64,000 bases of DNA from an uncultured Acidobacteriota bacterium (lineage in GTDB: Bacteria; Acidobacteriota; Vicinamibacteria; Vicinamibacterales; CAVVIG01). Below are positions 3,824 through 53,927 of the stretch, one piece after another. Numbering within the stretch: position 1 is the first letter of the stretch; the number at the start of each line of letters is the position of its first letter. Below the pieces are notes generated by a model, which worked only from the letters and a program-made list of their open reading frames with translations, did no database searches and had not been told where the DNA came from. A program made the position numbers and the translations under genes. The stretch lies in assembly GCA_963780685.1 (NCBI GenBank), contig CAWACZ010000012.1, forward strand, positions 195,238 to 259,237, given 5' to 3'.

Positions 3824-3852
3824 GACGATCTCGCTGCCGCTGTCACCTAATA

Positions 3853-3870: not shown

Positions 3871-4007
3871 AATGACCATGTATTGTCCATTGGTGGCGAC
3901 ACTGGCGGCCGCCGCCTCGTGCAATTGCCGCCACATTCGGCCCCCTCGTGATGGCACAGGGCGTGCTCGCGGTCGACGCGCACGGTCTGCGAAGGAGGTA
4001 TCACAAG

Positions 4008-6299: not shown

Positions 6300-6338
6300 C
6301 TGCGAATGCCGACAGGAGGTGTGATGTTATTTCTTCTC

Positions 6339-6674: not shown

Positions 6675-6681
6675 GACCTTC

Positions 6682-7577: not shown

Positions 7578-7579
7578 CG

Positions 7580-8257
7580 CTACACCTCGACCTCGGTGAA
7601 CGGGTCGTACTCAGCGGGCGCCGCGGCGGGTGGGGTCACGACCTTCAGCGCCACTGCCCGGCTCCGGGGCTGCTCTTCCATCGCCGCGGTGACATCGACG
7701 TGCGGCGCCACAGTCGCCAGCTTTCGGGGCACCATCACGTACACCTGCGTGGTGATCGTCTGATGGCCGAACTGGAAGGTGTTGACGGGCGTCGAGAGAG
7801 GCCGCAGCTGTTCGATCTGCTCTCGCGTGCCGAAGAAGAGCGCCTGGCTCGGGCACACGGTCGCGCACATCGGCTTCTTGCCGACGCTCGACCGGTCGTA
7901 ACACATGTCGCACTTCATCATGATCTTGCGGTCTTCGTAGAGCTCGGGCACGCCGAACGGGCAGGCCACCACGCAGTTCCCGCAGGCGATGCAGCGTGGC
8001 TTCCGTGCCGATTGCACCACCCCGTCGCCGGTGCGCTTGATGGCGTCCGCCGGACACACCTCGGCGCAGGTGGGCTGGTCGCAGTGCATGCAGACGACGG
8101 GCACGGTCTGCACGCTCTCCGACCGGTTCACATATTCGAGGTGAATCATCGATTCGCCGCGGTGCGTGTCGCACTCGGAGCATGCCTGCACGCAGGCCTG
8201 GCAGCCGATGCAGCGGTTTGGATCGATGAAGAAGTGCAGGTAGTCCGGTTTGCCCAT
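7580..8257 (-). CDS. 4Fe-4S dicluster (DmsB/PsrB/NrfC-like) electron-transfer subunit
   Basis: 225 aa with four Cys groups: [44 protein letters not shown]...CATVCP. Confidence 0.9.
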
Positions 8258-8275
8258 GGTGATGGTCGTGCCCGT

Positions 8276-10550: not shown

Positions 10551-10555
10551 GCCGG

Positions 10556-12885
10556 CTACCCTGCCTCTCGTTCGTCACTTGGCCCGCCGAAGCTATCAGG
10601 CGAAGGCGGCCGAGCGTTCAAGTAGTGCTGCCACAACGCTCCCTGCGCCAGACCGAAGAGTGCGCGGCGGCACTTGGGGCAAACGTCTTGGTAGTGCCCG
10701 CCGCCGGACAACTGGTACTGAAAGCCGAGTTCCTGCTCGACGACGGTGAGATCGCGAACCATCGGCAGCGAGGCATACGGTTGCCCGCAGCGGCGGCAAG
10801 CGGCCTGCTGGCCGCGAGCGCCTGCGTCCTTGTAGAAGCCGACGCCGAGCTGGGCCGGCCGTTGAAAGACGTGGAACAGCTTGCCGAACGGCAGCCAGAG
10901 CAGCGTCACGATCACCGTGGCGGCATGGAGAATCGCGAGGAACTCGTACGCGTAGCCCCGCATCCACGTGTAGCTGGCCGTGAGCATCAGCCCCGTCATG
11001 CTGATCGCGAAGAGCAGCAGCAGCGGCAGGATGTCCTGCCCGAACTGCTGCACGGCGACAGCGCCGTGGTCGATCATGCGGCGCCGGAAGGCGAGCATCA
11101 CGCCAGCGATGACCAGGAACGACGACCAGACCAGCCCATGGAAGATGACGAAGGCGAACGCGGACTCCACGGGAAAGTCCTGCATCGGGATGCCGAACAC
11201 GAAGGTGCGGTACCTGTGCAGGTCACCGGGAACCGTTTCGAAGTGAATCCAGCCCCAGACCAGCGGGAACGTGATCGCAGCAGCAAGCACGCAGCCCCAC
11301 ATGATCAGCCAGTGCGCGAGCCCACGGAGCCGGCCGCGCCGGAAGATGTACGCATTGGCCGCGAACTCCAGCAGCGCGCGGCGACCCGAGGCTGACCGTG
11401 TTGCCGGCCAGCGCGCGCCGTGAGAAGGAAGGCCTGCCATCCGCGACGCCAGTACATGCGCGTCGGCGGACGCTGCAGCCACATCGCGTACCGATAGCTG
11501 ATCCCGAACGCCGCAAAGAGCGTCGCGAACGTGTAGCCGACGAGCGCCGCGTCGAAGTGCTGCAGGTTTCGCGACCCGACGACGATCGCCGCGGCCAACG
11601 TGGCCGTGACGAGCGCTGCCCACGCGCCGGCTCTGACACGCTCGAGCGCCTGACGCGCGGCCACCGGGAGAGACCGCGTCCATTCGACGTCGCCTGGACG
11701 GAAGACACGCTGATTCGCCGCGCGCAGCAACAGTGCGGTCGCGGACAGGAGGAGGAACCCGGGCCAGATGGCGCCGAGTCGATCGCGGAAGACGCCGAGC
11801 AGGAGCGGCGGGAAGAACCCGCCGAGACCGCCGAGGGCGCCGACGAGGCCGGTCACCGTGCCGGTGTCTTTCGGGAAGCGTTCCGGGACCAGCTTGAAGA
11901 CGGCGCCGTTTCCCAGTCCCATCAGCATCGCGCACCCGAGCGCGCCGACCGTGAACGGCACCATCGACGGCCAGGTCAGAAGCAGCGAGAACAGGGCGAC
12001 GCCGCCGAAGACCCACGACAGGACCTGGGCGCCGCCGATCCGGTCCGCCAGCCACCCGCCGACGGGCCGCATGAGCGTGGCGAGCACGACGAATCCAGCC
12101 GCTCGGAATCCGGCGTCCGCAGGGGCCAGGCCGAACTGCGCACGCAGCAGCGTCGGCAGGTAGATCGAGAACGCGACGAATCCCCCGAATGTCAGGAAGT
12201 AGAATGCGCCGAGCAGCCAGGCGGTAGGCGCGCGCCGCAGGACCGCGGTCATCGCGGCGACCGTGGCGGGACGCCCGGCCTGCGGGGGATTCCGCGCGAA
12301 CACGAAGTAGGCGACGGCCCAACCCAGGAGAAGCGCGCTGGTGCCCCGGAACACCACTTCCCAGCCCAGGCGAGCGGCCACCACCGGGCCGGCGAAGACG
12401 GCAAGCGATTGCCCCATCGTCCCCAGACCGTAGACGCCGAGGGCGGTGCCCTGTCGAGCCGCCGGGGTCCAGCGGGACACGAAGGCCGCCCCTACCGCGA
12501 AGGACGACCCAGCCATGCCGATGAGGAAAGCCGCTACGAGCAGCGAGCCGAAGCTGCTCGTCAGCGGAACGAGGAACGCCGCCAGTGAGGAGAAAGCCAG
12601 GAGCGCGGTGAAGACCAGGCGGCCGCCGAATCGATCCGTCAGCATGCCCATCGGCAGCCGCGCCAACGAGCCGAGCAACACCGGCACGGCAACCAACAGC
12701 GCCGTCTGCGACGCCGTCAGCCCATAGAGACTGCTGAAGACAGACGCCAGTCCGCCAATGAGGCCCCACGCAGCGAACGACAGCGTAAAAGAGATCGTCG
12801 CGAGTACCAAGGGACGCGTGGGCGACGTCCCTGCACCGGTCACGTGGGCCACGGATGGCCTGCTCTCGAGAGACGTATCGCGCAT
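10556..12885 (-). CDS. Fusion protein: NarK-type MFS nitrate/nitrite transporter plus NarI-like di-heme cytochrome b domain plus C-terminal Cys4 ribbon; apparent frameshift near 11400
   Basis: ORF 11305..12885 is a 12-TM MFS ([16 protein letters not shown]...[34 protein letters not shown]). The C-terminal 280 aa of ORF 10556..12946 read [24 protein letters not shown]...FHGLVWSS...[20 protein letters not shown] and CRRCGQPY...CPKCRR. Confidence 0.8.
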
Positions 12886-34973: not shown

Positions 34974-37900
34974 ATGGCGTTCGGCGCGGCTGAGCCCCGC
35001 TATGAGATCGTCGAAATCATCGGCCGCGGAGGCATGGGAGAGGTCTGTCTCGCCGACGATGTGATGCTCGACCGCAAGGTTGCGCTCAAGTTCGTCAGCG
35101 AGCCCCGCGAAAGAGACGGCCTGGAGCAACTGCTCAGCGAGGCCCGAGCCGCAGCCGCTCTCGACCATCCGTTCATCTGCTCGATTTACGAAGTCACGAC
35201 GCACAACGGCCGCCCCTGCATCGCCATGGAGTACGTCCGCGGCGAGTCGCTCGAACGGCGGCTGCGCGGCGGGCCGCTGCCGCTTGGAGAGGCGCTCCGG
35301 GTGGCGGAAGAGATCGCCGAGGCGCTCGACGCGGCGCACAAGCGGCTCGTCGTTCACCGCGATCTCAAGCCGGCGAACGTCATGCTCACCGAGGACCAGC
35401 ACATCAAAGTCATGGACTTCGGGTTGGCGACCCGCTTGCCGCGGGCCGCCGCCGTCGACCAGGCGGCGACCGTCACGATTGCGGTGACGGATGCCGTCGT
35501 GAAAGGCACGCCGGCCTACATGGCGCCGGAACAGATCCGCGGCGAACCAGCCGATCGCCGATCCGATATTTTCGCGTTCGGCATTCTGCTGTATGAGGTG
35601 GTCTCGGGAACCAATCCGTTCCATCGCGGGGGGATCACCGCCACTTTCGCGGCCATTCTCGGCGAGCCGGCGCCGACGCTCCGCGGCCGCCTGCCGGCGA
35701 TTCCGCCTGCGCTCGATGCCCTTCTGGCACGGCTGCTGGCGAAGGATCAGGCCGCGCGATATCAGTCCTTCGGCGACGTCCGCAGCGCTCTGCGCGGCCT
35801 TTCGGTCGACATGTCTTCGTCGCTCGCGGCGCCGGCCGTTGTCGAGCGGCCGGCAAGCGATGACAGCGCCACGCTGATTGGGCGCGACGCTGAGGGGGCG
35901 CAGCTGCTGCAAAGCCTTCACCAGGCAAGGTCCGGTCGAGGCAGCCTCGTCCTGCTGGTCGGAGACGCGGGTATCGGAAAAACTCGACTGGCGGAAGATG
36001 CCCTGACGGCGGCGCGGCGGCTCGGATGTCAGACGCTCGTTGGCCGATGCTACGAGCAGGAGGACACGCCTGCGCTCATCCCGTACATCGAAGTGCTCGA
36101 GGAGGCCTCCCGGCTGATGCCCGCCGCACTGTTTCGCGAGGCGGTCGGTGCGAGCGCGCCCGAACTGGCGAAACTGATACCGGAGCTGCATCATCTGTTC
36201 CCCGACATGGCGGCGCCGCTGGAGTTGCCGCCGCAGCTGCAGCAACGATACCTGTTCACGAATGTCCGCGAGTTCCTCACTCGAAGCGGTCGCTCCATGC
36301 CGCTCGTGATCTTCATCGACGATCTGCAGTGGGCAGACGAGTCGACCGTTCAGCTGACGCAGCAGCTGGCGCAGCAGCTCGCCAACCTCCCGATCCTCGT
36401 CATCGCGGCGTACCGCGAGGTGGACGTCGCCCCCACTGGCCCTGGCAGGGGCAGGCTTCACAACCTGCTGGACCGGGTCCGTGGTCAGGGGATTCCCGCA
36501 TCACAGTCGATCAAGGCCGCGCTCGATCAGCTGGTCGGCCAGCGCCACGCCCGTACGATCGCGCTGCGCCCGTTGACACAACCCGAAGTGCAGGGCGTGC
36601 TCGCAGCGCTCGGCCAGCCAAACCCGCCGGCCGCGCTCGTCCGGAAATTCGCCGAGCACACCGGCGGAAATCCGCTGTTCATCGCCGAGCTGTTCCGGCA
36701 CCTGAAGGACGAAGGACGGCTGTTCGACGCCCGCAACCACTGGACGCGCAACATCGACCTCGACGATGTCGAGATTCCCGACACGGTGCGCATCGTGCTG
36801 GAGCGCCGGATTCAGCGCGTCTCGCCCGAAACGCAGAACGTGCTGAAAGCCGCGGCGGTGATTGGCCGTCAGTTCGAGCCCGACCTGCTCGAAGAGGTCG
36901 CCGAAATCGACAGCGATACGCTGCTCTCGGCGCTGGACGAGGCCGAGCAAGCCCGGATCCTGAGAGGCCCTTCGGGGCGCCGCGACACCATGTGGCGCTT
37001 TGCCCATCAGTTCATTTGCCAGATGCTGACCGGCGCGATTCCCCAGCTTCGCCGGCAACGGCTGCACTTGCGCGTCGCCGACGCGATGGCGCGGCTCGAC
37101 CGAGAGTCCCGCGTGTACACATCCGGGATCGCGCATCATCTGTACTGTGCCGGCCGCCTGGCCGACCCCGGTCGAGCCGCCCGCGCGCTGATCACGGCTG
37201 GCGACGCCGCGCACGTCGTGTATGCCACCGAAGAAGCGGTCCAGCATTATCGCCGGGCCCTCGAGGTGTTGAAGGATACGAGCGGCCACGAACGAGAGCG
37301 GCTTTCGGTGCAGGAAACGCTCGCGGACCTGCTGGCACTGCAAGGCGATCGCGCCGCAGCGATGGAACACTACGAAACAGTCAGCGCCGCTTACCGCGCC
37401 GCACAGGCGCCGGTCGATCAGGCGCGCGTCGCCCGCAAGACCGGCACGCTCCATTGGCAGGCCGGCGATCGTGCCGAGGCGATGGCGGCGTATCGTCGGG
37501 CACTGGAGGCCCTCGCCGGAGCAACGGCGCACCTCGAATCGGCCCACCTTTATCAGGAGCTGGGGCTCGCCGCGTTTCGCAGCGGAGACAACGACCAGGC
37601 ACGCGAGTGGGCGGAGCGCGCGCTGCAATCGGCGGAGCTCGCGCTCACCGCGCCTGCGTCCGACGGGTCGCAGGTCCGCAAAGCGGCGACAACGGCGATC
37701 GCGCAGGCCACCAATACGATCGGCGTCGCGCTGGCACGGTCCGGGCAGCTCGACGCCGCCCGCGAGCGCATCGAGCGCAGCCTCGCCGCGTCACGGGATC
37801 TGGGACTGCTCGACGTCGCCTGCCGCGCCTACGCCAATCTCGGAGTCCTCTACAGTTCCGTCGAGCCGCAACGTGCGATCGACGTGTCGCTGACGGGGCT

Positions 37901-38330
37901 CGAGCTGGCGTCGAGGATCGGCGCACCGTCGCTCCAGTCGTATATTTACGCGAACCTCGCGGCCGCGTACTGCGCGTTGACCGAAAGGTGCGAAACAGAA
38001 GGCCTTGAGGCGGCGCAGACGGCCGTCGCGCTCGACCGCGAGCTGGGGCAGCTGGACCATCTCGCCGTTCCGCTCGTCGTCATGGCGCAGATCCATCAAT
38101 GCCGCGGCGAGCTCGAGAAGGCGCAAGAGGAGTATCACGAGGCGCTCGCGCTGGCTGAAAAGATCGGCGAGCCGCAGTTGATCTTCCCCTGCTACGACGG
38201 CCTCGCCACGATCCACCTGGATCGAGGCGACCGCGGTCGTGCGGAAGAATTCATGGTGAAAGCTCAGCAGCTGTGCGAACGGACCGGTCTCGATCCCGAT
38301 GCGCTACTCCTGCTCCCGTTCTTGTGTTGA
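34974..38330 (+). CDS. Ser/Thr protein kinase fused to AAA/STAND-type NTPase and TPR array (1118 aa, intact)
   Basis: RYEIVEIIGRGGMGEV...HRDLKPANVM...DFGLA...GTPAYMAPE; Walker A LVGDAGIGKTRLAE; Walker B-like LVIFIDDLQWADES; long TPR-like C-terminus. Confidence 0.9.
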   Translation: MAFGAAEPRYEIVEIIGRGGMGEVCLADDVMLDRKVALKFVSEPRERDGLEQLLSEARAAAALDHPFICSIYEVTTHNGRPCIAMEYVRGESLERRLRGGPLPLGEALRVAEEIAEALDAAHKRLVVHRDLKPANVMLTEDQHIKVMDFGLATRLPRAAAVDQAATVTIAVTDAVVKGTPAYMAPEQIRGEPADRRSDIFAFGILLYEVVSGTNPFHRGGITATFAAILGEPAPTLRGRLPAIPPALDALLARLLAKDQAARYQSFGDVRSALRGLSVDMSSSLAAPAVVERPASDDSATLIGRDAEGAQLLQSLHQARSGRGSLVLLVGDAGIGKTRLAEDALTAARRLGCQTLVGRCYEQEDTPALIPYIEVLEEASRLMPAALFREAVGASAPELAKLIPELHHLFPDMAAPLELPPQLQQRYLFTNVREFLTRSGRSMPLVIFIDDLQWADESTVQLTQQLAQQLANLPILVIAAYREVDVAPTGPGRGRLHNLLDRVRGQGIPASQSIKAALDQLVGQRHARTIALRPLTQPEVQGVLAALGQPNPPAALVRKFAEHTGGNPLFIAELFRHLKDEGRLFDARNHWTRNIDLDDVEIPDTVRIVLERRIQRVSPETQNVLKAAAVIGRQFEPDLLEEVAEIDSDTLLSALDEAEQARILRGPSGRRDTMWRFAHQFICQMLTGAIPQLRRQRLHLRVADAMARLDRESRVYTSGIAHHLYCAGRLADPGRAARALITAGDAAHVVYATEEAVQHYRRALEVLKDTSGHERERLSVQETLADLLALQGDRAAAMEHYETVSAAYRAAQAPVDQARVARKTGTLHWQAGDRAEAMAAYRRALEALAGATAHLESAHLYQELGLAAFRSGDNDQAREWAERALQSAELALTAPASDGSQVRKAATTAIAQATNTIGVALARSGQLDAARERIERSLAASRDLGLLDVACRAYANLGVLYSSVEPQRAIDVSLTGLELASRIGAPSLQSYIYANLAAAYCALTERCETEGLEAAQTAVALDRELGQLDHLAVPLVVMAQIHQCRGELEKAQEEYHEALALAEKIGEPQLIFPCYDGLATIHLDRGDRGRAEEFMVKAQQLCERTGLDPDALLLLPFLC

Positions 38331-38400
38331 CGTAGAATTGTCAGCTCGCAGGTCGAGAGAAACGTTCAGAGGCCGTTGAATCTTGGAAAAGGTTGATCCC

Positions 38401-39069
38401 ATGTCGCTATCAGGCCAGATGCCGGTTCAGCCCGGAGAGCCCGCGCCCGACTTCGCCGTGTCGGCCGTGCACGAGGATCGGATGATTTCGTTGGCAGACT
38501 ACCGCGGAAGGACGCCGCTGCTGCTCGGCCTGTTCAGGGGCCTGTACTGCCCGTTCTGCCGGCGTGCGCTGGCCCAGATGGCCGTCTCGTCCGACCGCCT
38601 GAAATCGCTCGGCGTCGATTCGCTGGCCGTTGTCGGCACCGACGTGGAGAATGCGCGGCTTTATTTCAAGTTCAGACCGACGCGCATGGCGCTCGGCGCC
38701 GACCCGAATCTCGTCACCCACCGCTCGTACCGTGTGCCGCGGCCGGAGCCTACGTCCGAGTTGATGCAAGCGATGGCGAACACACAGATCAACCCGACTG
38801 GAGAGCTCCCGGCACCGCTGCCGGTGCCCGCCGCAGGGGCCGCCCTCAACGCGCTCGACGGCTATCAGAGCACGCCGGCCGATCAGCGGGACTTCGAGTC
38901 GGCGTTTACGCAGTTGAAAGGCCAGTTCCTGATCGACCGCGGCGGCGTCGTGCGGTGGGCCCACATCGAGGGCCAGGAGGGCCCCTCCGGTCTCGGCAAG
39001 TTCCCTTCGCACGACGAATTGATTGACGCGGCGAGTATCGTCATCGGCGGCACACGGGTCGGCACTTAG
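38401..39069 (+). CDS. AhpC/TSA-type peroxiredoxin-like protein (Cys form)
   Basis: MSLSGQMPVQPGEPAPDFAVSAV...RTPLLLGLFRGLYCPFCRRALAQM...FLIDRGGVVRWAHI. Confidence 0.8.
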   Translation: MSLSGQMPVQPGEPAPDFAVSAVHEDRMISLADYRGRTPLLLGLFRGLYCPFCRRALAQMAVSSDRLKSLGVDSLAVVGTDVENARLYFKFRPTRMALGADPNLVTHRSYRVPRPEPTSELMQAMANTQINPTGELPAPLPVPAAGAALNALDGYQSTPADQRDFESAFTQLKGQFLIDRGGVVRWAHIEGQEGPSGLGKFPSHDELIDAASIVIGGTRVGT

Positions 39070-39190
39070 CGATCCCACCGGTCCAGTTTCGGTCACACAG
39101 TGCGGCTTCGATCCGTCACGAAGGTGACGGCCGACACGGTCACGCCCACGACGGTCACGTGCGTGGCATGCACCGGCATTGCTAAACCTC

Positions 39191-39231
39191 TTGACATGCA
39201 CTAGTCAAGTAATCTATTGATTACTTGACTA
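39191..39231 (+). promoter_or_regulatory. TTGACA -35 box plus 30-bp perfect palindrome (13-4-13) overlapping the -10 region and the start codon of the ArsR-rhodanese gene
   Basis: TTGACA at 39191-39196. TAGTCAAGTAATC-TATT-GATTACTTGACTA spans 39202-39231, and its last base is the A of ATG 39231. Confidence 0.6.
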
Positions 39232-39977
39232 TGACCGATCCCCACCGAACCTTCAAGGACCGCCTCTACGGTCAGTTCGCTCGCCTCGGCAAGGCGCTCG
39301 CCAGCCCGCATCGCATCGAGATGCTCGAACTGCTCGCACAGAGCGAACGCACGGTCGATTCCCTGGCGACGGAGATGGGCTTGTCGCTGGCGAATGCTTC
39401 TCAGCATCTGCAAGCGCTGCGACAAGCCGCGCTGGTCGAAAGCCGCAAACAAGGCCTATTCGTCCACTACCGGCTCGTCGACCCGTCGGTCTTCGACCTC
39501 TGTGCCGCCCTGCACACGGTGGCCGAGCGACGTCTCGCCGACTTGGATCGCCTCGTGCGCGAGCACTTCGGGGACCGTTCCGACGCCGAGCCGGTGCGCA
39601 TGCGCGATCTGCTGGATCGGGCGCGGGCGAGCGACGTCATCATTCTCGACGCCCGGCCCGCAGCCGAGTACCAGGCGGGCCATATCGCCGGCGCGATTTC
39701 GGTTCCCATCGACCAGCTCCAGAAACGTCTGCGGTCGCTGCCAGTCGACAAGGAGTACGTGGCGTACTGCCGTGGCCCCTACTGTGTGTACGCCGATCGA
39801 GCGGTCGAACTCCTTCTAAAGAGTCGCCGCCGCGCCCGGCGTCTGCTCGAGGGATTTCCGGAGTGGCGCGCGGCGGGATTTCCCATTGCACGAGGGAGCG
39901 ACGCGCCGGCGGTGCCAGGACGGCCGCGACGGCGCGGTTCACGCCGTCCTCGAAAGCGCCTGCTGACGTCGGTTTGA
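39231..39977 (+). CDS. ArsR-family HTH regulator fused to a rhodanese domain
   Basis: FARLGKALASPHRIEMLELLAQSERTVDSLATEMGLSLANASQHLQALRQAALV (ArsR wHTH), then VIILDARPAAEYQAGHIAGAISVP...YVAYCRGPYCVYADRAV (rhodanese). Confidence 0.85.
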   Translation: MTDPHRTFKDRLYGQFARLGKALASPHRIEMLELLAQSERTVDSLATEMGLSLANASQHLQALRQAALVESRKQGLFVHYRLVDPSVFDLCAALHTVAERRLADLDRLVREHFGDRSDAEPVRMRDLLDRARASDVIILDARPAAEYQAGHIAGAISVPIDQLQKRLRSLPVDKEYVAYCRGPYCVYADRAVELLLKSRRRARRLLEGFPEWRAAGFPIARGSDAPAVPGRPRRRGSRRPRKRLLTSV

Positions 39978-44338: not shown

Positions 44339-44887
44339 TCAACGAGGTGGTCGACGTCTGGCGACGCCGAGTTCGGCCAGCTTGGCTGCGACGGTCCGCC
44401 CGTGCGTCGCGGGGCTCACCTGTTTGTCGATATAGAGGATCCGGCCGTCGACGCCGATGTAGAAGGTCCAACGCGAAGCGAACGGTTGATCTTCATCAAC
44501 GACACCGTATGCCTTCGCGACGCTCTTGTCCGGATCGCTGAGCAGCGGATAGTCCACACCCAGGGACCGCGCGAAGGCCTGGTTGGCGTCCAGCTGGTCG
44601 ACGCTGGCGGCGAAATAGGCCACGTCGAACGCCCGAAAGTCGTCGCCACTCTCACGGAGTGACTTGCACTCGGCCGTTCAAGCGGGAGAGAACGCCTTCG
44701 CAAACCACGCGAGGACGACTGCCTGTTTCCCCTTGTAATCCGCAAGGGTGTACTGCTTCCCGTCAGACCCCCGCAGCGAGAACGAAGGGGCGACGTCACC
44801 CACCTTCAGTCCGCCTGCGGCAGTGACCGCTGTCGCCAACGCTACGGCCAAGGAAATCCAACCGGCCATCTTGGGTAAGACGCGCAT
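44339..44887 (-). CDS. Secreted peroxiredoxin/Bcp-like redoxin with in-frame UGA (candidate selenocysteine) at 44678-44680
   Basis: ORFs 44678..44887 and 44339..44623 share one phase. Joined read: signal peptide, GDVAPSFSLRGSDGKQYTLADYKGKQAVVLAWFAKAFSPA-TGA-TAECKSLRESGDDFRAFDVAYFAASVDQLDANQAFARSLGVDYPLLSDPDKSVAKAYGV. The peroxidatic Cys position (T/S-P-x-C) is the TGA. Confidence 0.8.
44645..44663 (-). promoter_or_regulatory. Candidate SECIS hairpin for the redoxin UGA
   Basis: Minus strand GUCACUC-CGUGA-GAGUGGC: a 7-bp stem including one G-U pair, starting 14 nt after the UGA. Confidence 0.45.
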
Positions 44888-44919: not shown

Positions 44920-47588
44920 ATGTTAGTGGGGCCTGGCTCTCAAATTGGCGCCTATGAGGTGGTCGCTGCGATCGGCGCAGGCGGCATGGGCGAGGTGTAT
45001 CGCGCGCGCGATTCCAGGCTGAACCGCGACGTGGCGTTGAAGATCATCCGTCAGCCCCTGACCGACGCGGAGCACCTCGCCCGATTTCGCCGCGAAGCGC
45101 AGGTACTTGCCGCGCTCAATCACCCGCACGTCGCCAGCATTTACGAACTCGACGAAGCCGACGGCATGCTCTTCCTGGTGATGGAGCTCGTTCCCGGGCA
45201 GACGCTCGGCGATCTGCTGGCCAGCCGGCCCGCTCGATCTCTGGAAGTCACCGAAGCCCTCACAATCGCGCGGCAAATCGCCGAAGCCCTCGAAACAGCG
45301 CACGACAAGGGTATCGTCCACCGCGATCTCAAGCCAGCCAATATCAGGGTCACGCCGGACGGCGTCGTGAAGGTCCTGGACTTTGGTCTCGCGAAAGCGC
45401 TGTCGGGCGAGGCCGCCGAAGTGAATCTGACGAACTCGCCGACCCTTACCGTCGCTGCAACCAGTATCGGCATGATTCTCGGCACTGCGGGGTACATGTC
45501 TCCGGAACAGGCAAAGGGCCAGGTCGTCGACCGACGCACGGACGTCTTCGCATTTGGCTGCGTACTGTTACGAGATGCTCGCAGGACGGCCAGCGTTCAA
45601 GGGTGAGACGCTGGCGGAAATTCTGGCCGGCGTTCTGAAAACGGATCCGGATTGGAGTCGCCTGCCAGCCGGCACCTCGACGAACGTGACGCGCCTCCTG
45701 AACCGCTGTCTCCAAAAGGACATCAAGGCACGGCTGCGAGACATGGGCGATGCCCGGCTCGAGATCGAAGAGGCTCTCAATCGGCCTGCCATGACGACCG
45801 AGCTCGAGGCAAGCCCGACTGCCGCACGCAGCCTGCAAACGGAGTGGCCGCGGATGCTCGCGGTGGCGGCGGCGGGAGCGGTGGCGGGTGCGATTGCGAT
45901 GTGGAGCCTGAGGTCCGAGCCGCAGGTGCCAACGCTCCCCAGCGGACGCTTCGTCATTGCGCTGCCTGCGAACGAGAGACTCGCAGGGTTGGATTTTCCG
46001 TCGGTCGCGATCGCACCCGATGGATCGGTCATGGCGTACGTCGGGTCACGGAGCGGTCAATCACAGTTGTTCCTCCGGCCGATGAACGGCCTGGAGACAA
46101 CCGCCATTGACGGAACGACCAATGCGATTGCCCCGTTCTTCTCGCCGGACGGTCGATGGCTCGCGTTCTTTGCGGACGGCCAGCTCAAGAAAGTGCCGAC
46201 CGCGGGTGGGTCTCCGGTGACGCTCACCGAGGCGCGGGTCGGCGTCGGTGGCAGTTGGGGCGCCGGCGACACGATTGTGTTCGCAGCCGGAACGGGATCG
46301 GCACTTTCACGCGTGTCCGCCAATGGCGGCATGCCGGAGCGCGTGACGACCCTGGCGGCGGACAAAGGAGAGTTCAGCCATCGCTGGCCCGAGCTGCTGC
46401 CGGACGGCAAGACAGTCATCTACACCGTCGGTACCGCTCGGTCACTGGGACGACGCGCAGATCGTCGCGCAGAAGCTGGGCTCGCCAGAGCGTTCGGTGC
46501 TCGTGCAGGGCGGGACGAATCCTCGCTACCTCGCGTCAGGCCATCTGCTCTATGCGCGAGGCGGCGCAATCATGGCCGTGCCTTTCGATCCAGCCAGTCT
46601 CAAAACCTCAGGTACGCCCATCCGACTCCTGGAAAACGTCCTCCAATCGTTCGACGGCGCCGCACAACTGAGCGTGTCGCCATTGGGCACAGCGGTCTAC
46701 GTCACGGGTGAATTCGAATCGAACCGGCGGCGCCTCACAACCGTCGATCGCAGCGGCGTGGCCACGCCGTTTGCCGCTCCTCTTCAAGCTTACCGAGAGC
46801 CGCGACTGTCGCCCGACGGTCGAAAACTCCTGGTGACCATCGAAGGCTCGACCGAAGATCTCTGGGTCTACGACATGACCGCCGGGACGCTGAACCAGCT
46901 GACGTTCGGCGTCAACGCGGCCCTGCCAATTTGGACGCCCGATAGCCAACGCGTGACGTTCAGCTCGAACGCGGGCGGAACGCCAAATCTGTTTTGGACG
47001 ACGATCGGTCAGCAGAGGGCGGCGGAACGGTTGGCGACCAGCGACAACATCCAGTTGCCGGGGTCGTGGTCTCCCGACGGACGTACGCTGGCGTTCGTCG
47101 AACGACACCCCAGCACGGGCCGCGACATCTGGCTTCTGCGGCTGGACGAAGACCGCGAGGCCCGGCCGTTCCTCACTTCGCCATTCGACGAAAGCGCGCC
47201 GCGCTTCTCACCGGATGGCCGTTGGATCGCGCACGTCTCCAACGAATCAGGACGTGACGAAGTGTTCGTTCGGTCTGTGGCTGACTCCGGCCGCAAACTG
47301 CAGCTGTCGGACGGCGGTGGGACCGAGCCGGTCTGGGCGCGAGATGGAAGCGAGATCTTCTATCGTGTCGGCACCAGGCTGATGGCCCTGCTGATGGCCG
47401 ACGGCCGTCCGGCTCGCGGCGCGCAGCCCCGTCAGCTCTTCGAAGGCGAGTTCGAAAAAGGCTCGATGGATGCCGCCGACTACGACGTGACGCCGGACAA
47501 CCAACGCTTCGTGATGATCGGCGGCAGTGGCACATCGACCGATCACGCAACCATTCACGTCCTCATCAATTGGCGTCTTATTCCTTGA
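44920..47588 (+). CDS. Ser/Thr protein kinase with TM segment and TolB-like WD40 beta-propeller repeats; apparent 1-nt insertions near 45568 and 46440
   Basis: GAYEVVAAIGAGGMGEVYRA...HRDLKPANI...DFGLAK...GTAGYMSPEQ. After the TT at 45568-45569 it reads YEMLAGRPAFKG. PD40-like repeats follow: FFSPDGRWLAF, RLSPDGRKLL, WSPDGRTLAF, RFSPDGRWIAHVS. Confidence 0.8.
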
Positions 47589-47925
47589 CCTTTGCCTTAT
47601 ACGGAGAAGGCCCCTGGGGCCCCGGCGCGGTGTCGACCGCGCCAATCAGACTCTGCACCGTGGCCTCGCGCGGGTCGTAGGTCACGACCGCCTCGTGATT
47701 CTCGAGCGTCACCCGGGCGCGCGTGACGCCTTTGACCTCTAACAGTGCGGACCGCACTGCGGCAATGCAGCCCTCTCATATCATTCCGTCAACGACGAGC
47801 GTCACCGTCGCGGACGCCGAATCCGCCGTGGGCTCCTGTTGGGCCGGTGATTGACCGGCCCCGCATCCGGCAACCAGCAGCCCGACGAACACCAACAACT
47901 CTCGCCGTGAAGGTGGCAGTCTCAT
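47578..47925 (-). CDS. HMA (heavy-metal-associated) domain lipoprotein with in-frame UGA replacing the first Cys of GMxCxxC (candidate selenocysteine, tca 47776-47778)
   Basis: SD AGGAGG 8 nt before ATG 47925. MRLPPSRRELLVFVGLLVAGC (lipobox) GAGQSPAQQEPTADSASATVTLVVDGMI-TGA-EGCIAAVRSALLEVKGVTRARVTLENHEAVVTYDPREATVQSLIGAVDTAPGPQGPSPYKAKVKE* = 116 codons in one phase. Both halves are too short or M-less to appear in the ORF track. Confidence 0.75.
47743..47759 (-). promoter_or_regulatory. Candidate SECIS hairpin for the HMA UGA
   Basis: Minus strand CAGUGC-GGUCC-GCACUG: a 6-7 bp perfect stem with a GGU-containing loop, starting 16 nt after the UGA. Confidence 0.5.
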
Positions 47926-48051
47926 GGGGAGCCCTCCTGCGAAAACCGCCGACCGGACGATCGCTCCGGCGTGTCGTCCGTGATGGGGCTAATCCTACTC
48001 AATTCTCGCGACCTACAGGCGCATCGGCTTCAAAAGGATCGTCATTCACGC

Positions 48052-51000
48052 TCAGCCGCCGAGGCGGCCATATTTCAGGTAAAGAGTGGGCACGACGAAC
48101 ATGTTCAGTAACGTCGACGTCACTAGGCCGAATAGGATGACGATCGCCATCGGCGTCTGAATCTCACTACCCGCCCTGCCGCCGCCCACTGCCAGCGGAA
48201 TCAGCGCCAGTCCTGCGGCCATGGCGGTCATGACGATCGGAATGAGACGTTCGCACGTGCCCCGCTCGATAGCTTCGCGGAAGTCGGTCACGCCTTCCTG
48301 CTCCATCAGATGACGAACGTGCGAAACGAGCATGATGCCATTGCGCGTCGCAATCCCGAATAACGTGATGAAACCGATCATCGACGCCACGCTCAGGACG
48401 CCGCCCGACAGGTAAACGCCAACGACCCCGCCAATCAGCGCCAGTGGCAGGTTCACCATCACGAGGAGCGCGTCGCGCGCTTGCCCGAACGCGAGCACGA
48501 GCAGCATGAAGACTCCTACGACGACGCCTGCCCCGAGGACCAGCAGCCGACGTGACGCGCTTTGCTCGCTCTCGAACTGCCCGCCATATTCGACCCGATA
48601 GCCGGCCGGCAGCGAGACGGCAGCGGCAATCGTCGCTCGCATGTCCTCGACGACGCTCCCCAGGTCCCGGCCGGCGACGTTGCTCGAGATCACGATACGA
48701 CGCTGCACGTTTTCCCGCTGGATCATGTTCGGTCCGCGTTCCCGCCGGACATCGGCAAGCACTCGAATAGGGACCGGCCCGCTATTCGGTGTGTCGATGG
48801 GCAACCCTGCCAGACGGTCGAAATCGGCCTGCGCCGCTGGATCAAACTTCACCACGATGTCGAACGCCGTGGCTCGATCGAAGACGCGACCAACACGCGC
48901 TCCGGCAAAGCTCGTCTCTACCGCCTCGGCGACGTCATTGGGCCGCAGTCCGTAGCGGCCGATGGCCGTCCGATTCAGTACGAATCGCACGACCGGGACT
49001 TCTGTCTGCTGCTCCAGCGACACGTCGACGGCGCCCGGGATTCGAACCATGACATCCCGGACCTGCTCGCCGAGCCGTCGCAGCGTCAGCAAATCATCGC
49101 CAAAGATCTTCACCGCGATGTTGGCTCGCGTGCCCGACAGCATGTGGTCGATGCGATGCGAGATAGGCTGACCGATTGTCACGTTCGTGCCTGGGAGAGC
49201 CGAGAATCCCCGGCGGAGCTCCGCCAGCAACACCCCACGCGGGCGGCCGCCCTCCCGCAGTCCGACATCGATCTCGGCTGCTTCGACGCCCTGTACGTGT
49301 TCGTCATACTCGGCCCGGCCGGTACGGCGTGCGGTCGCCACGACCTCCGGCTGTGCCAGCAGGATCTGTTCGACACGGCGGCCAATCTCGTCCGATTTTG
49401 GAAGCGATGTACCCGGGAGTGTATTCGCCTGGACGGTCAACGACCCCTCATTGAATTCGGGAAGAAACGCGCTGCCCATGCGTGTCGTCGCCACGAGGGC
49501 GGCTGCCAGCAGGCTGCCCGCCACGACCACGATCAAACGCGGCCGATCGAGAGCCAGGGGCAGCGCTTTCGCAAACCGCGCCTTGAGCCACCGCGTCAGC
49601 CAGCCGTCGTGCCCCTGCAGGATCGACTTCGCGTTCGGCAAGAACGCGTAGGACAGCGCCGGTGTGACGATGATCGCCACACCCAGTGACGCCAGCAGCG
49701 CCACGATGTACGCGAATGCGAGCGGCGTCAGGAGCCGGCCTTCCACCCCGGACAGCCCGAAGACTGGCATGAATACGAGAACGATGATGACGGTCGCGAA
49801 CACAATCGAGGTCCGGATCTCGAGTGTCGCATCACACACGACGGCAGCAGCGGCCTGCTGCTCGCCCGGCGGCCTAACCGCGTTCTCGCGCAACCGTCGG
49901 ACTACGTTTTCCACATCGATGATCGCATCGTCGACCAACGCACCGATTGCGATGGCCATTCCTCCAAGCGTCATCGTGTTGATGGTCGCATCGAACGCCC
50001 GTAATACGAGAACGGCGGCGGCCAGCGACAACGGCATGGCGGTCAGCGTAATCGCCGCTGCCCGGAGGTTGGCGAGAAACAACACCACGATGAGGATGAC
50101 GAGCAGCGCGCCGTCGCGCAGGGCGTTGACGACGTTGTGGATCGCGACCTCGATGAAGTCAGCTTGCCGGAAGATGCGGCGATCGATCGTCATTCCGCGC
50201 GACAGCTCCCGTTGAATCGCATCGAGCTCGCGATCGAGTCGCGCGGTCAATTCAACAGTGTTGGCTCCTGGCTGTTTCTGTACGCCGACGATGACCGCGG
50301 GCTTCCCGTTGCGTGAACCCTCGCCCCGTTTCAGCGCACCACCTACGCGCACCTCGGCGATATCGCGGACCAACACCGAGCGGTCGCCGTGCAGTGTCAC
50401 GACGGTGTCGCCGATGTCGGCCGGCGTGCGCGCGCGCCCGATCGTCTCCAGCACGTACTCCTGCGGACCCTCCACATATATGCCAGCCGACGTGTTCTGG
50501 CTCGCGCCCCGCACGGCGTTCAGCAGCTCGTTGACACTGATGTTGTTGGCGCGGAGCTGATCTGGATGGACCACGACCTGAAACTGGCGTTCGGACCCGC
50601 CAATGGGTGTCACCTGCGACACACCGGCCACTGCGAGCAGCCGCCGTCGGACCAGGGTGTCCGCCATTGTGCGAAGAGTCAGCGGATCGTCAGCGTCCGA
50701 CGAAATCGCAAAAAACAGAATCTCGCCCATGATCGACGAGATTGGCGCCAGGATGGGCCGCTCGGCTTGTGGGGGGAGGCTACCGCCGACCAGCGCCAGC
50801 TTCTCGGCAACCACCTGACGCGCTCGAAAAATGTCGGTGCCCCAGTCGAATTCCACCCAGACGACCGCAATGCCAACGGCAGTTGCAGAGCGGACGCGCC
50901 GTACGTCGGACGCGCCGTTGATAGCGGCTTCGATCGGAAAGGTCACGAGCGTTTCCATCTCCTCGGGCGCCATGCCGCGTCCTTCGATGAGAATCGTGAC

Positions 51001-51135
51001 CGTCGGCGCCGTCAAATCAGGAAAGACGTCGACCGGCATGGCTCGGGCAGTCCACATACCAGCGCCGGCGAGCACGATCGACAGCGCCAGAACCATCCAG
51101 TGATGATCAATCGACCATTGGATCAGCTTTTTCAT
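48052..51135 (-). CDS. CusA/CzcA-family heavy-metal efflux RND transporter
   Basis: 1027 aa intact; MKKLIQWSIDHHWMVLALSIVLAGAGMW...DVFPDLTAPTV; TM4 motif AIAIGALVDDAIIDVENV; typical 12-TM HME-RND architecture. Confidence 0.95.
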   Translation of the reverse strand: MKKLIQWSIDHHWMVLALSIVLAGAGMWTARAMPVDVFPDLTAPTVTILIEGRGMAPEEMETLVTFPIEAAINGASDVRRVRSATAVGIAVVWVEFDWGTDIFRARQVVAEKLALVGGSLPPQAERPILAPISSIMGEILFFAISSDADDPLTLRTMADTLVRRRLLAVAGVSQVTPIGGSERQFQVVVHPDQLRANNISVNELLNAVRGASQNTSAGIYVEGPQEYVLETIGRARTPADIGDTVVTLHGDRSVLVRDIAEVRVGGALKRGEGSRNGKPAVIVGVQKQPGANTVELTARLDRELDAIQRELSRGMTIDRRIFRQADFIEVAIHNVVNALRDGALLVILIVVLFLANLRAAAITLTAMPLSLAAAVLVLRAFDATINTMTLGGMAIAIGALVDDAIIDVENVVRRLRENAVRPPGEQQAAAAVVCDATLEIRTSIVFATVIIVLVFMPVFGLSGVEGRLLTPLAFAYIVALLASLGVAIIVTPALSYAFLPNAKSILQGHDGWLTRWLKARFAKALPLALDRPRLIVVVAGSLLAAALVATTRMGSAFLPEFNEGSLTVQANTLPGTSLPKSDEIGRRVEQILLAQPEVVATARRTGRAEYDEHVQGVEAAEIDVGLREGGRPRGVLLAELRRGFSALPGTNVTIGQPISHRIDHMLSGTRANIAVKIFGDDLLTLRRLGEQVRDVMVRIPGAVDVSLEQQTEVPVVRFVLNRTAIGRYGLRPNDVAEAVETSFAGARVGRVFDRATAFDIVVKFDPAAQADFDRLAGLPIDTPNSGPVPIRVLADVRRERGPNMIQRENVQRRIVISSNVAGRDLGSVVEDMRATIAAAVSLPAGYRVEYGGQFESEQSASRRLLVLGAGVVVGVFMLLVLAFGQARDALLVMVNLPLALIGGVVGVYLSGGVLSVASMIGFITLFGIATRNGIMLVSHVRHLMEQEGVTDFREAIERGTCERLIPIVMTAMAAGLALIPLAVGGGRAGSEIQTPMAIVILFGLVTSTLLNMFVVPTLYLKYGRLGG

Positions 51136-51159
51136 TGATTACTCCGGGGCCCTGCCCAT

Positions 51160-52704
51160 CTAGTGAACATGGCCTTCGGCGGGCAGCCCAGACGCCGCGG
51201 ACGCTAAGTGCACCTCGTATGCGCCCCGGGTGACGACCCGCTCCCCGGACTTCACACCGCTGGTGATTCCCACCAGGTCGCCATCTTTCGCGGCAATCTC
51301 GATGAACCGGCGCACAAACTTCTCACCTCCAACCTGTACGAACACGTATGGACGGCCGGCCTCCATCAGCACCGCCGCACTCGGGACGCCTGGGACTCGC
51401 TGACGCTCGCGCGCGTACAGGACTGCCGTGCCAGCCTGACCGACCAGCAATTGCTCTCCGGGATTTTCGATCTCCATCTGAAGCCCGAGCGCCTGGGTTC
51501 CTGGATGGATGACGCCGGAATCATGCAGGTGGCGCGGCTCGAGCATGAACGGCGAGGCGATTCCCGGAATTTCGAGCGCGAGTCCGCCGGCCTGGCGCGC
51601 CACTACCACCTCGGCCGACGGAACCTGGACTTCCAACTCGACGCGGTCCGTCCGCACGATCTTGAAGAGCGGAGTCCCTTCATCATAAGAAGCGCCCAGC
51701 GTCGCGTTTACCTCCGCCAATCGACCAGCGATTGGCGCACGCAGCACGAACGCGTTGCCGGCGGCCGCACCGCCACCCGCACGGAGCGTTTCGTCACGTT
51801 GCGCGAGCCGCGCCTCGGCCGCTCGCAGCCGGGCCTCTGCCACAGTGATGGTGCGGCGTGCGTCGTCCACTCGGCGAGCCGGCACCGCCCGCTCGGCGAG
51901 GAGCCGCTCCGCCCGCGCCAGCTCGACGCGCGCGGCTTCGAACGCAGCGCGCGCCTCTGCAACGTCCGCCTCGAGCGTGGCGCGGTCGGCACCCGTGGCG
52001 AGCCGCGGCTCCAGACGTCCAAGGACCTGCCCCGCGCGGACGCGCGTGCCAATCGACAGCAACACGTCGGTGGTGAACCGGCCGGCCGCCGGCGCCGCCA
52101 CCATCGCCTCACCGCCCGGCAGCGGATGCACCGTCGCCGGGACCCGGATTGACGCACGTACCTCCACCTCCTGCACAGGCGTCGTCGCGAATGGATTGGT
52201 CCATTGCTGTTCCTTGAGATACGCGATCGCTGTAGCCGCTTCCGGGGCTGCCTGCTCGCCGCTGGCTCTGGCGGCCCGCTCATCGGCAAAGACCGTGACC
52301 GACCCAAGGTCATGTCGATCGACGAGTCCCGGCACCTCGAGAATCAGCGTCCACCGGTACCGGCCGGCTGGAGGCGGAACGGCTTCAATGCGAAACGCTC
52401 CGGGCCGGGACGGTCGCGGACCCGTCAAGACTGTCGGCTGACCGCCAGCCTCCGGTGTGAACTCGACCCTGGCCTGGCCGTCGGCGACGGGCGCAAAGTC
52501 GGCGAGCCTCGTCAAGTGCACCGCGAAAAGCGCGGAGCGGCCCGCGACGAGCGGTGGGTATTCCATGAACAGCTCGGTCTTGTCGGTCCAATGCGTCACG
52601 TCAAGCGTCGTTACAGCTCCAGGACTCTGAACCGGTGCGGCCCGTCCGCAACCGGCGAAACCAAGCGCACCGAGCAACAGGAGAGCCGTCAGTTTTGCGG
52701 TCAT
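51160..52704 (-). CDS. Efflux RND periplasmic adaptor (CusB/CzcB-like) lipoprotein with long N-terminal extension
   Basis: MTAKLTALLLLGALGFAGCG lipobox; coiled-coil LEADVAEARAAFEAARVELARAERLLAERAVPARRVDDARRTITVAEARLRAAEARL; barrel/MP domains. ATGA overlap with the TolC stop. Confidence 0.9.
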   Translation of the reverse strand: MTAKLTALLLLGALGFAGCGRAAPVQSPGAVTTLDVTHWTDKTELFMEYPPLVAGRSALFAVHLTRLADFAPVADGQARVEFTPEAGGQPTVLTGPRPSRPGAFRIEAVPPPAGRYRWTLILEVPGLVDRHDLGSVTVFADERAARASGEQAAPEAATAIAYLKEQQWTNPFATTPVQEVEVRASIRVPATVHPLPGGEAMVAAPAAGRFTTDVLLSIGTRVRAGQVLGRLEPRLATGADRATLEADVAEARAAFEAARVELARAERLLAERAVPARRVDDARRTITVAEARLRAAEARLAQRDETLRAGGGAAAGNAFVLRAPIAGRLAEVNATLGASYDEGTPLFKIVRTDRVELEVQVPSAEVVVARQAGGLALEIPGIASPFMLEPRHLHDSGVIHPGTQALGLQMEIENPGEQLLVGQAGTAVLYARERQRVPGVPSAAVLMEAGRPYVFVQVGGEKFVRRFIEIAAKDGDLVGITSGVKSGERVVTRGAYEVHLASAASGLPAEGHVH

Positions 52705-53927
52705 TGTGGAATCTCCCAACCACTCGCAAATGTCAGCTCGATCTCAGCTCGTCGTACCGCGAGGTCGAGGGTTGCCTGACGCACGCGCGCGGAGGCACCA
52801 ATCCGATAGGCGTCGAGCAACTCCAAGATGCCCCGTTCACCGGCGTCGTAGCTCACCTGCGCAATCCGTTCAATCTGGGCGGCGCTGTTCAAGGCGTCGG
52901 ACCGATACCGCTCGGCCACCATGCGTCGCTGAATGACCGCCTCGCGAAGCGCGGCCACCTCTCCGCGAAGGACGAGACGAAATGACGAAGCACGCGAGTT
53001 CGCCTGAGCCATCCGTGCCTGGGCGAGCGCGCGTTCCGCTGCCGATCGATCGAACAGCGGGATCGTCGCGCGGACGGTGATGACGCTGCCGACATCTCCA
53101 CCGCCGAGGTTCGACGACTTGGTGCCGGCGACGATCTCCGGCTCGGGCACGCGCCGACGGTCGGCGGCCTGAGCCGCGAACTCCGCCGACTCGAGGTCGT
53201 GCCGCAGCGCGACGAGCTCACCGCGCGTCGATTCCGCGTGCCCGAGTAGTGTCTCGAGTGCCGGGATCGCGGCCGCGGACGGCCCGCCGGGCAGCGCCAC
53301 GAGCAGAGAGGCGTCCGTGCCGTCGCCGAAGTAGCTCGCCAGCCTCGCCTGGGCGCTTGCTCGTTCGATGACCACCAGCGCCCGGTCGGCCTCGATGTCG
53401 AGCGCCTCGCGCTCGGCACGAAGACGATCGAATCCCGCGGCATCACCAGCGTTCTCACGTTTCGCCAGGGCGTCCGCCAGTTCGCGAAGACAATCCCATG
53501 CGCTCGTCAGCTCACGCTCCCGCGCCTGGGCCGCCACGAGGTCTGCGAAGGCGAGTCGCAGCTCCGTGCGAAGGCGCCGGACCCCATCATCGGCACGGCT
53601 CGAGCTGGCCGACACCAGCGCCTCCGCTGAATGCACGTCCAGCCCGCGGCGTCCGGTGATGGGCAGCACCTGCGACACCGTCGTGAGGTACTCGGTGACT
53701 CCCGCCACCGACTCGCGTGTCAGGCCCGGTTGCGGATTTGGCCATCGCCCTGCAGTCAGGACATCAACCCGCGCCATGTCAACAGCCGTGCGGATTGCCC
53801 GCACGCGAGGACTGTCTGACGAGAGTCGCGCCAAGGCATCGGACTCGGTCAACGTCAACGTTTGCGCGCCGACACCGAGCGGCATCCACACCACCGCCAG
53901 GGCGGCGCAGAGCACATCTCTGCGCAT
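52701..53927 (-). CDS. TolC-family outer-membrane efflux protein
   Basis: 408 aa; signal peptide MRRDVLCAALAVVWMPLGVGAQ; two repeats of a coiled-coil/beta pattern typical of OEP. Confidence 0.9.
   Translation of the reverse strand: MRRDVLCAALAVVWMPLGVGAQTLTLTESDALARLSSDSPRVRAIRTAVDMARVDVLTAGRWPNPQPGLTRESVAGVTEYLTTVSQVLPITGRRGLDVHSAEALVSASSSRADDGVRRLRTELRLAFADLVAAQARERELTSAWDCLRELADALAKRENAGDAAGFDRLRAEREALDIEADRALVVIERASAQARLASYFGDGTDASLLVALPGGPSAAAIPALETLLGHAESTRGELVALRHDLESAEFAAQAADRRRVPEPEIVAGTKSSNLGGGDVGSVITVRATIPLFDRSAAERALAQARMAQANSRASSFRLVLRGEVAALREAVIQRRMVAERYRSDALNSAAQIERIAQVSYDAGERGILELLDAYRIGASARVRQATLDLAVRRAEIELTFASGWEIPQ

Follow-up and report, generated by a model that had tools for sequence, protein, structure and literature searches.

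A 64,000-nucleotide stretch of DNA from an uncultured bacterium of the phylum Acidobacteriota (Vicinamibacteria; Vicinamibacterales; contig CAWACZ010000012.1, positions 195,238 to 259,237), referred to below as the window, contains a small gene that is interrupted by an in-frame TGA and is probably a genuine selenoprotein gene of a heavy metal-associated (HMA) domain family from soil Acidobacteriota. We refer to this gene and its product as HMA-U. In the explanation that we favor, the UGA at codon 50 would be read by the ribosome as selenocysteine (Sec), by means of a SelB-type selenocysteine insertion sequence (SECIS) hairpin located 17 to 33 nt after the UGA inside the coding sequence. The mature protein would be lipid-anchored at Cys21 in the lineage of the window, with a flexible low-complexity linker carrying a single HMA domain into the periplasm. 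There, a soft metal ion (Cu(I), Hg(II), Ag(I) or similar) would be bound in a two-coordinate site between the selenolate of Sec50 and the thiolate of Cys53, in a mode that would resemble metal binding by periplasmic MerP or CopZ-type domains. The gene and its parts are located as follows.

47578–47925, minus strand: HMA-U gene, 115 codons including one predicted Sec codon, followed by a TAA stop; assigned from its translation, a Pfam HMA match, and the same architecture in 36 homologous loci.
47933–47938, minus strand: Shine-Dalgarno sequence AGGAGG, 7 nt 5' of the ATG, read from the sequence.
47863–47925, minus strand: predicted signal peptide, residues 1–21, with a twin-arginine translocation (Tat)-like n-region SRRELL and a lipobox L-V-A-G-C21, read from the sequence; the RR pair recurs in most Vicinamibacteria-type homologs.
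47581–47808, minus strand: predicted HMA (ferredoxin-like) metal-binding domain, residues ~40–115 (Pfam match, residues 44–98), from profile and PDB sequence matches.
47776–47778, minus strand: in-frame TGA, codon 50 (predicted Sec50), at the first cysteine (Cys1) position of the G-M-x-C-x-x-C motif.
47743–47759, minus strand: putative bacterial SECIS hairpin CAGUGCG-GUC-CGCACUG, starting 17 nt after the UGA, from in-register conservation and frozen synonymous sites.

Direct translation of the minus strand reads MRLPPSRRELLVFVGLLVAGCGAGQSPAQQEPTADSASATVTLVVDGMI, then the TGA, and then EGCIAAVRSALLEVKGVTRARVTLENHEAVVTYDPREATVQSLIGAVDTAPGPQGPSPYKAKVKE before the TAA, so that the portion following the TGA begins with EGCIAAVRSALL and ends with KVKE. 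The program-made list of open reading frames (ORFs) holds the gene as two halves, a 49-residue ORF that starts with ATG (47776–47925) and a 59-residue piece that starts with GTG (47578–47757). A first-pass annotation of the window, made by a model from the letters and the ORF list, had proposed a complete 115-residue minus-strand protein that is split by the TGA and missing as a whole from that list, and this description agrees with both the translation and the list. Its other readings of the local sequence were equally accurate: the AGGAGG Shine-Dalgarno sequence, the lipobox LLVAGC, the low-complexity linker, the 126-nt gap that separates HMA-U from the end of an upstream pump gene at 48052, and the 11-nt overlap between the 3' end of HMA-U and a convergent ORF that ends at 47588.

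The joined protein, searched with U replaced by C, matches the Pfam HMA family (PF00403) with E = 2.8e-12, scoring 47.3 bits against a cutoff of 24.8. Its sequence matches in the PDB are MerP, CopZ, and ATP7B domains, with MerP entries 1AFI and 1OSD at E about 1e-11, and an HMA fold is predicted for the protein. The metal-binding loop reads G-M-I-U-E-G-C, and the U aligns with Cys1 of the GM(T/H)CxxC motif in ATP7B, MerP 1AFI, and CopZ, as well as with the equivalent cysteine of the Cys-containing sister proteins described below. The first-pass annotation had named both a match of the joined sequence to HMA profiles and the placement of the TGA at the first Cys of GMxCxxC as tests of its reading, and both came out in its favor. 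The C-terminal segment G-P-x-x-P-x-Q-Y-x-A-K-V-K aligns with the G-M-x-x-Y-x-A strand of the Cys homologs, and we interpret it as the last HMA beta strand with a short loop insertion.

The TGA is conserved across the family. Among 5.8 billion protein clusters, a search recovered 63 homologs, each 63 to 77 residues long and each starting just after the UxxC motif (MSCVAAVRSALL..., MAPVRAALL...), with no full-length entry of the family among them; NCBI names one of these truncated homologs 'heavy metal-associated domain-containing protein'. From the DNA around the homologs, together with scans of GTDB representative genomes and of JGI metagenomes (Acidobacteriota metagenome-assembled genomes (MAGs) and soil metagenomes), we collected 36 related loci that carry the gene. 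In each of the 36, a conserved ...TVTL.I.GM. strand and, before it, a signal peptide are encoded in the same frame upstream of the TGA. With the window included, the TGA occupies this codon in 37 of 37 instances, at protein identities that range from 68% down to about 45%, the nearest relatives of the window gene being those at loci L005 and L016 (67–68% identity). None of the 37 instances has a Cys codon at the TGA position, and all of them have the U-x-x-C motif, with a single predicted Sec. The carriers belong to two Acidobacteriota classes, Vicinamibacteria and Terriglobia (Ca. Acidiferrales), and Sec at the Cys1 position appears to be obligatory in this family. Upstream of the TGA, the residues T-8, L-7, G-3, and M-2 show no variation at the protein level, whereas the third positions of their codons vary freely, which indicates that the region is coding sequence.

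An exhaustive HMMER search identified Cys-containing sister proteins (P0169, P0195, P0201, and P0118) that likewise begin with a signal peptide and share the C-terminal G-(M/P)..Y.A strand. Their motifs are GMQCDGC, GMHCAGC, or GMHCEGC, with GM(Q/H/T)C at the TGA column. These proteins are automatically annotated as 'copper chaperone CopZ', and their genes lie in the company of metallophosphatase and lipoyl-E2 genes, a context that provides no functional clue; the contexts of the outlier HMA-U loci L021 and L034 provide none either. TGA is the ordinary stop codon of 12 of the 21 confident genes in the window, so that recoding would be specific to the site, and a global reassignment of TGA was rejected on the same count. 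As a separate observation, locus L011 carries a degenerate second HMA copy (11901–12332, with the match at 12153–12302; ...GHPAGCLSVQSAPQSVKG...HEAVITYDP...) that lacks the GMxU motif and is probably a decaying duplicate.

The sequence downstream of the TGA contains a candidate for the RNA element that recoding in bacteria would use. Counting the U of the UGA as position 1, C20-A-G-U-G-C-G26 pairs with C30-G-C-A-C-U-G36 across a G-U-C loop to form a 7-bp hairpin, which occurs in exact register in 25 of 28 distinct sequences. For six of the hairpin pairs, pairing is kept in 25 to 28 of the 28 sequences, and the loop-closing pair 26–30 occurs as G-C (12 sequences), A-U (7), or G-U (6). The three exceptions (L001, L017, and L020), in which the protein reads VAPVRAAL, have a different G+C-rich hairpin about 4 nt upstream. 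Because the hairpin lies in coding sequence, we compared synonymous variation inside and outside it. Within the hairpin, codon choice is nearly fixed, with GTG for Val in 28/30, CGG for Arg in 23/23, GCA for Ala in 26/30, and CTG for Leu in 26/30, corresponding to an entropy of 0 to 0.7 bits, while equally conserved Val, Gly, Thr, Arg, and Ala codons elsewhere have a synonymous entropy of 1.3 to 2.0 bits. GCA in particular is a rare choice for Ala elsewhere in the gene (1/15, 1/21, and 3/27). This pattern is good evidence, although not formal proof, of a constraint acting on the RNA itself, which has the location and the form that a bacterial SECIS element should have. In having G and U in its apical loop, and in the distance of about 23 nt from the UGA to the loop, the hairpin resembles the E. 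coli fdhF element. A scan of the 64-kb window with Rfam at gathering thresholds gave no match.

The window contains a second gene that is split by an in-frame TGA.

44342–44887, minus strand: exported BCP/PrxQ-like peroxiredoxin (PrxU) with an in-frame TGA at 44678–44680, from profile matches and the conserved TGA.

PrxU, which reads ...AWFAKAFSPA-U-TAEC... and lies ~2.7 kb from HMA-U, is cut to 69 residues by gene callers. At least eight other loci share both its TGA and its downstream hairpin GUCACUC-CGUGA-GAGUGGC, with a compensatory change from A-U to G-C in L027. Since a second gene with a family-conserved TGA is found so close to HMA-U, the organism very probably decodes Sec, which speaks indirectly for the Sec machinery that the first-pass annotation required of the genome. 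Within the phylum, Occallatibacter riparius is documented to have the Sec trait (PMC12013277). Sec insertion at codon 50 of HMA-U is what we infer from these features taken together.

Most Vicinamibacteria-type members of the HMA-U family, including the window protein, have a leader of the form S/T-R-R-x-(L/F/V)-(L/I), and the Tat signal profile TIGR01409 matches two relatives exactly at its cutoff of 16.7 bits, so Tat export of HMA-U is plausible. The Acidiferrales members have no RR pair and their leader ends in AQQAMA, which we read as a signal for export by the general secretory pathway. A lipobox is also present in L004, L005, L009, and L016, and is absent from most other family members; the description of the protein as a lipoprotein in the first-pass annotation is consistent with the lineage of the window but does not extend to the family as a whole.

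Comparison with curated protein families places HMA-U near several known metal-binding proteins, and it is from such sequence comparisons that we propose metal binding and the candidate metals. The family NF041115 ('UxxU_metal_bind') comprises small HMA-type domains that stand alone and contain Sec in the metal loop, as is predicted for HMA-U, and among the curated families this one gives the top score with the window protein and with 7 of the 8 relatives that were compared (E 1e-15 to 1e-19). However, the scores of the window protein (58.5 bits) and of the eight relatives (56–68 bits) miss its cutoff of 95 bits. NF041115 has a UxxU motif with two Sec residues, whereas HMA-U has UxxC with one predicted Sec, an export signal, and a 3–6 residue insertion before the last strand. 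In reviews, NF041115 appears as a 'putative mercuric reductase' with UxxU (PMC13188914; PMC9312934).

The second-best profile for the window protein is MerP (TIGR02052), the periplasmic Hg(II) binder of mer operons, which shares with HMA-U a signal peptide and a single periplasmic HMA domain (with the motif GMTCxxC in MerP). The window protein scores 56.4 bits and its relatives 51–61 bits against a cutoff of 92.55. In contrast to MerP, HMA-U has a kinase and a peroxiredoxin as its neighbors, and most members have a Tat-like leader and some a lipobox; merT, merA, and merR were not seen among the scanned ORFs of the window or the called genes of L001, L002, and L004. A 'Mercuric transport protein MerP' selenoprotein entry with two sequences was found in the Global Ocean Sampling (GOS) survey and tabulated in 2008 (PMC2398784). 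Selenoproteins of the P1B-type ATPase family (ABB15669.1) also resemble HMA-U in that UxxC replaces the first Cys of an HMA domain, but there the domain is cytoplasmic, N-terminal, and fused to the pump, whereas HMA-U is free-standing and is predicted to be exported. Cation-transporting P-type ATPases with UxxC, and MerT-like selenoproteins, are listed in several surveys (PMC13188914; PMC9312934; PMC2398784). CopZ/Atx1-type chaperones have the HMA fold and the GMxCxxC loop as HMA-U does, but are cytosolic, have no signal peptide, and use only Cys; the CopZ models NF033795, NF033794, and NF047957 give 42–56 bits for the window protein and its relatives against cutoffs of 85–95, and HMA-U has a signal peptide.

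NCBIfam also contains a MerT/CopZ fusion selenoprotein, NF045683. The statement in the first-pass annotation that UxxC variants appear in selenoproteome surveys was correct, as illustrated by the UxxC ATPases and the GOS MerP entry (PMC2398784) and by NF041115 and NF045683, while the novelty that it implied was overstated, Sec-containing HMA proteins being already known. HMA-U falls outside MerP, CopZ, NF041115, and NF045683 by profile score, lying below the cutoffs of all of them, and a stand-alone PF00403 family from Acidobacteriota is not named in the selenoprotein literature that we surveyed. Replacement of Cys by Sec in HMA loops has been catalogued since 2005–2008, and HMA-U establishes no new principle in this respect. 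What is new is the apparently obligate Sec, the predicted export, the taxonomic home of the family, its kinase and peroxiredoxin neighborhood, and the truncation of the protein in every database entry.

The gene that lies between HMA-U and PrxU encodes a kinase.

44920–47588, plus strand: Ser/Thr kinase and Tricorn/PD40 beta-propeller gene, convergent with HMA-U and broken by two 1-nt insertions, from Pfam matches; intact orthologs encode 879–882 residues.

We surveyed the neighborhood of the family by tblastn of the outer membrane factor (OMF), membrane fusion protein (MFP), resistance-nodulation-division (RND) pump, kinase, and peroxiredoxin proteins of the window against all loci. The HMA-U/kinase/PrxU arrangement occurs in about 20 loci, and the genes beyond these three differ from locus to locus. 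Essentially all Vicinamibacteria-type loci that extend far enough have the kinase/beta-propeller gene after HMA-U, and the 3' ends of these two genes often overlap; PrxU lies beyond the kinase and is divergent from it. Relative to the kinase of L005, the window sequence has an extra T at about 45568 (T to TT) and an extra C at about 46434 (C to CC), which distribute the gene over three frames. The overlap between HMA-U and what the first-pass annotation called a convergent kinase gene is therefore real, but the overlapping ORF is the third of three frame-shifted pieces. These frameshifts are either long-read indel errors or the mark of a pseudogene. Many of the relatives come from long-read MAG projects, which makes indel errors likely, and real decay is possible too. 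The identification of the TGA is unaffected by frameshifts in the window, because 36 independent loci carry it.

Because the conserved partners of HMA-U are a membrane kinase with a periplasmic beta-propeller and an exported Sec-peroxiredoxin, the neighborhood points to a role for the family in envelope metal or oxidant stress, and HMA-U may be functionally linked to these neighbors. It is possible, but unlikely, that HMA-U, the kinase, and PrxU form one envelope module in which the two periplasmic selenoproteins would act as metal and peroxide sensors or effectors that signal through the kinase or are controlled by it. If true, such a system for sensing stress would depend on selenium and be specific to the Acidobacteriota of soils, without a described counterpart.

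Several other genes of related types were noted. Locus L005 has a paralogous kinase/beta-propeller gene (3811–6471, plus strand) with 34–57% identity to the module kinase, 3.5 kb upstream of HMA-U. In the window, a second Ser/Thr kinase gene, fused to AAA_16 and TPR repeats (34974–38330, plus strand), precedes an AhpC/TSA-like ORF whose insertion is unusually long (38383–39069, plus strand) and an ArsR-HTH/rhodanese fusion (39225–39977, plus strand), so that redox and sulfur-related genes again occur beside a kinase (34974–39977). At 6930–10574 on the minus strand, a molybdopterin oxidoreductase is split over the overlapping frames 9654–10574 and 8276–9757, the third apparent frameshift of the window, and is followed by a 4Fe-4S dicluster protein (7580–8275) and a Rieske protein (6930–7610), also on the minus strand.

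The Acidiferrales loci have a different arrangement. The kinase module is absent, a BON-domain gene precedes HMA-U, and a gene for a TlpA/DipZ-like thioredoxin-fold CxxC protein directly follows it on the same strand. The four Acidiferrales loci are 83–90% identical and were counted as one observation. The TlpA/DipZ-like protein (L011–L014, about 8900–11560; for example, L013 8998–9699 and 10359–11564) has AhpC-TSA/Redoxin and Thioredoxin_10 domains and the motif WEYTCINC, and may serve as a reductant for the periplasmic Se/S pair.

These neighbors raise the alternative that the U-x-x-C motif is mainly a redox center, a selenenylsulfide/selenol-thiol couple that would support periplasmic peroxide or disulfide chemistry together with PrxU or the TlpA/DipZ-like protein. 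The Vicinamibacteria-type loci, where HMA-U shares a conserved module with an exported Sec-peroxiredoxin, and the Acidiferrales loci, where the CxxC protein is encoded directly downstream, are both consistent with such a function, and redox proteins account for most known bacterial selenoproteins (PMC13188914). However, the predicted HMA fold of HMA-U has a canonical G-M-x-C-x-x-C loop that includes the Met, and its best profiles (MerP, CopZ, and NF041115) all describe metal binders. The linkage to a TlpA-like gene is confined to one closely related lineage, and a thioredoxin-fold neighbor could just as well be a reductant that protects a periplasmic metal site from oxidation, in the way that TlpA reduces the metal site of ScoI. 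On balance, we consider a primarily redox function improbable and metal binding the better description of the predicted Sec50-Cys53 pair.

Upstream of HMA-U, on the same strand, the window encodes a complete tripartite efflux system (48052–53927), identified from Pfam and NCBIfam matches, whose adjacency to HMA-U is specific to the window.

52701–53927, minus strand: OMF gene.
51160–52719, minus strand: MFP gene.
48052–51135, minus strand: CusA/CzcA-family RND pump gene.

The pump scores 762 bits against TIGR00914 (cutoff 701), which assigns it to the CusA/CzcA family and confirms the identification made in the first-pass annotation. The signature of its fourth transmembrane segment (TM4), residues 396–410, reads AIGALVDDAIIDVEN and is not identical to that of E. 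coli CusA. It is also without the DFG...DGA signature of classic CzcA.

The first-pass annotation proposed that the protein is a metallochaperone attached to this exporter. In this alternative, HMA-U would be a dedicated periplasmic metallochaperone of the adjacent pump, co-transcribed with it and handing metal over to it, as a Sec-containing analogue of CusF. The position of HMA-U 126 nt downstream of a bona fide CusA/CzcA-family pump with MFP and OMF genes argues for this proposal, as does the intervening gap, in which neither a canonical terminator nor a sigma-70 promoter was called, and an exported, membrane-tethered binder of soft metals would be a plausible metal donor for an RND pump. 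One other locus, L019, has homologs of the OMF and MFP (5866–7661; 30% and 39% identity to those of the window) within 1 kb of the module, and is the only other locus with RND-system genes near it. However, these genes are found on the opposite side, beyond PrxU, and the near-identical locus L022 does not have them. Upstream of HMA-U, tblastn detected no RND, MFP, or OMF homolog in any other locus whose upstream sequence reaches 3.5 kb or more (17 loci), a set that includes L005 and L016, the closest relatives of the window gene. In addition, HMA-U has its own strong Shine-Dalgarno sequence, and a weak hairpin followed by U4 lies just upstream of the gene. The comparison with CusF is also limited: CusF is a small periplasmic Cu(I)/Ag(I) binder encoded beside a Cus-type RND pump, whereas HMA-U has no conserved RND adjacency, and the fold of CusF is a small beta-barrel with a Met/His/Trp site, unlike HMA. 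We read the adjacency of the pump as a local rearrangement and do not regard the family as belonging to RND efflux operons. A dedicated chaperone of the pump is accordingly a doubtful identity for HMA-U, and there is little likelihood that the organism of the window exploits the adjacency functionally.

That the TGA is instead a true stop, produced by nonsense mutation, pseudogenisation, or sequencing error and leaving no full-length protein, might be argued from the apparent frameshifts at three other places in the window (two of them in the kinase gene, the third in that of the molybdopterin oxidoreductase), which make local sequence quality or gene decay a fair concern, and from the treatment of the TGA as a stop in every database entry, but this reading is effectively refuted by the recurrence of the TGA at this codon in 37 of 37 independent assemblies, which come from different projects and represent two classes, by purifying selection on both sides of the TGA, by the constrained RNA hairpin downstream, and by the Cys at this site in the sister proteins. 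Both a pseudogene and a sequencing error were rejected as the origin of the TGA on the basis of its conservation and the codon constraint that flanks it.

Some observations weigh against the interpretation of HMA-U as an exported, metal-binding selenoprotein. In the hairpin only one pair covaries, a signal that is confounded by coding constraint and by common descent, and RNAalifold alone picks a slightly shifted register of 5 bp. The genes selA, selB, and selD and tRNA-Sec were not found in the window or the fetched loci, where Pfam annotation covered about 30 further ORFs of the window and tRNA-Sec was sought in the window and 14 loci; the decoding machinery is thus presumed. The leader of the window protein (S-R-R-E-L-L) does not match TIGR01409 at E <= 0.01. 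No mer, cop, or other metal genes are conserved beside the family, and its surroundings give no indication of metal specificity. Finally, the kinase partner is frame-shifted in the window, which may reflect either damage to the module in this organism or indel errors in the assembly.

A curated, Sec-aware model would repair the truncated annotation of the HMA-U family, and PrxU needs the same repair. The family would place an apparently obligate Sec, found in all 37 instances, in a metal-binding rather than a catalytic redox site, and outside the cytoplasm, where selenoproteins are rare and a selenol is exposed to oxidants. HMA-U would also provide a small and tractable protein with which to gauge what a selenolate adds to the binding of Cu(I), Hg(II), or Ag(I). 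For the soil Acidobacteriota, which are abundant and poorly cultured, the finding would tie the use of selenium to the handling of metals.

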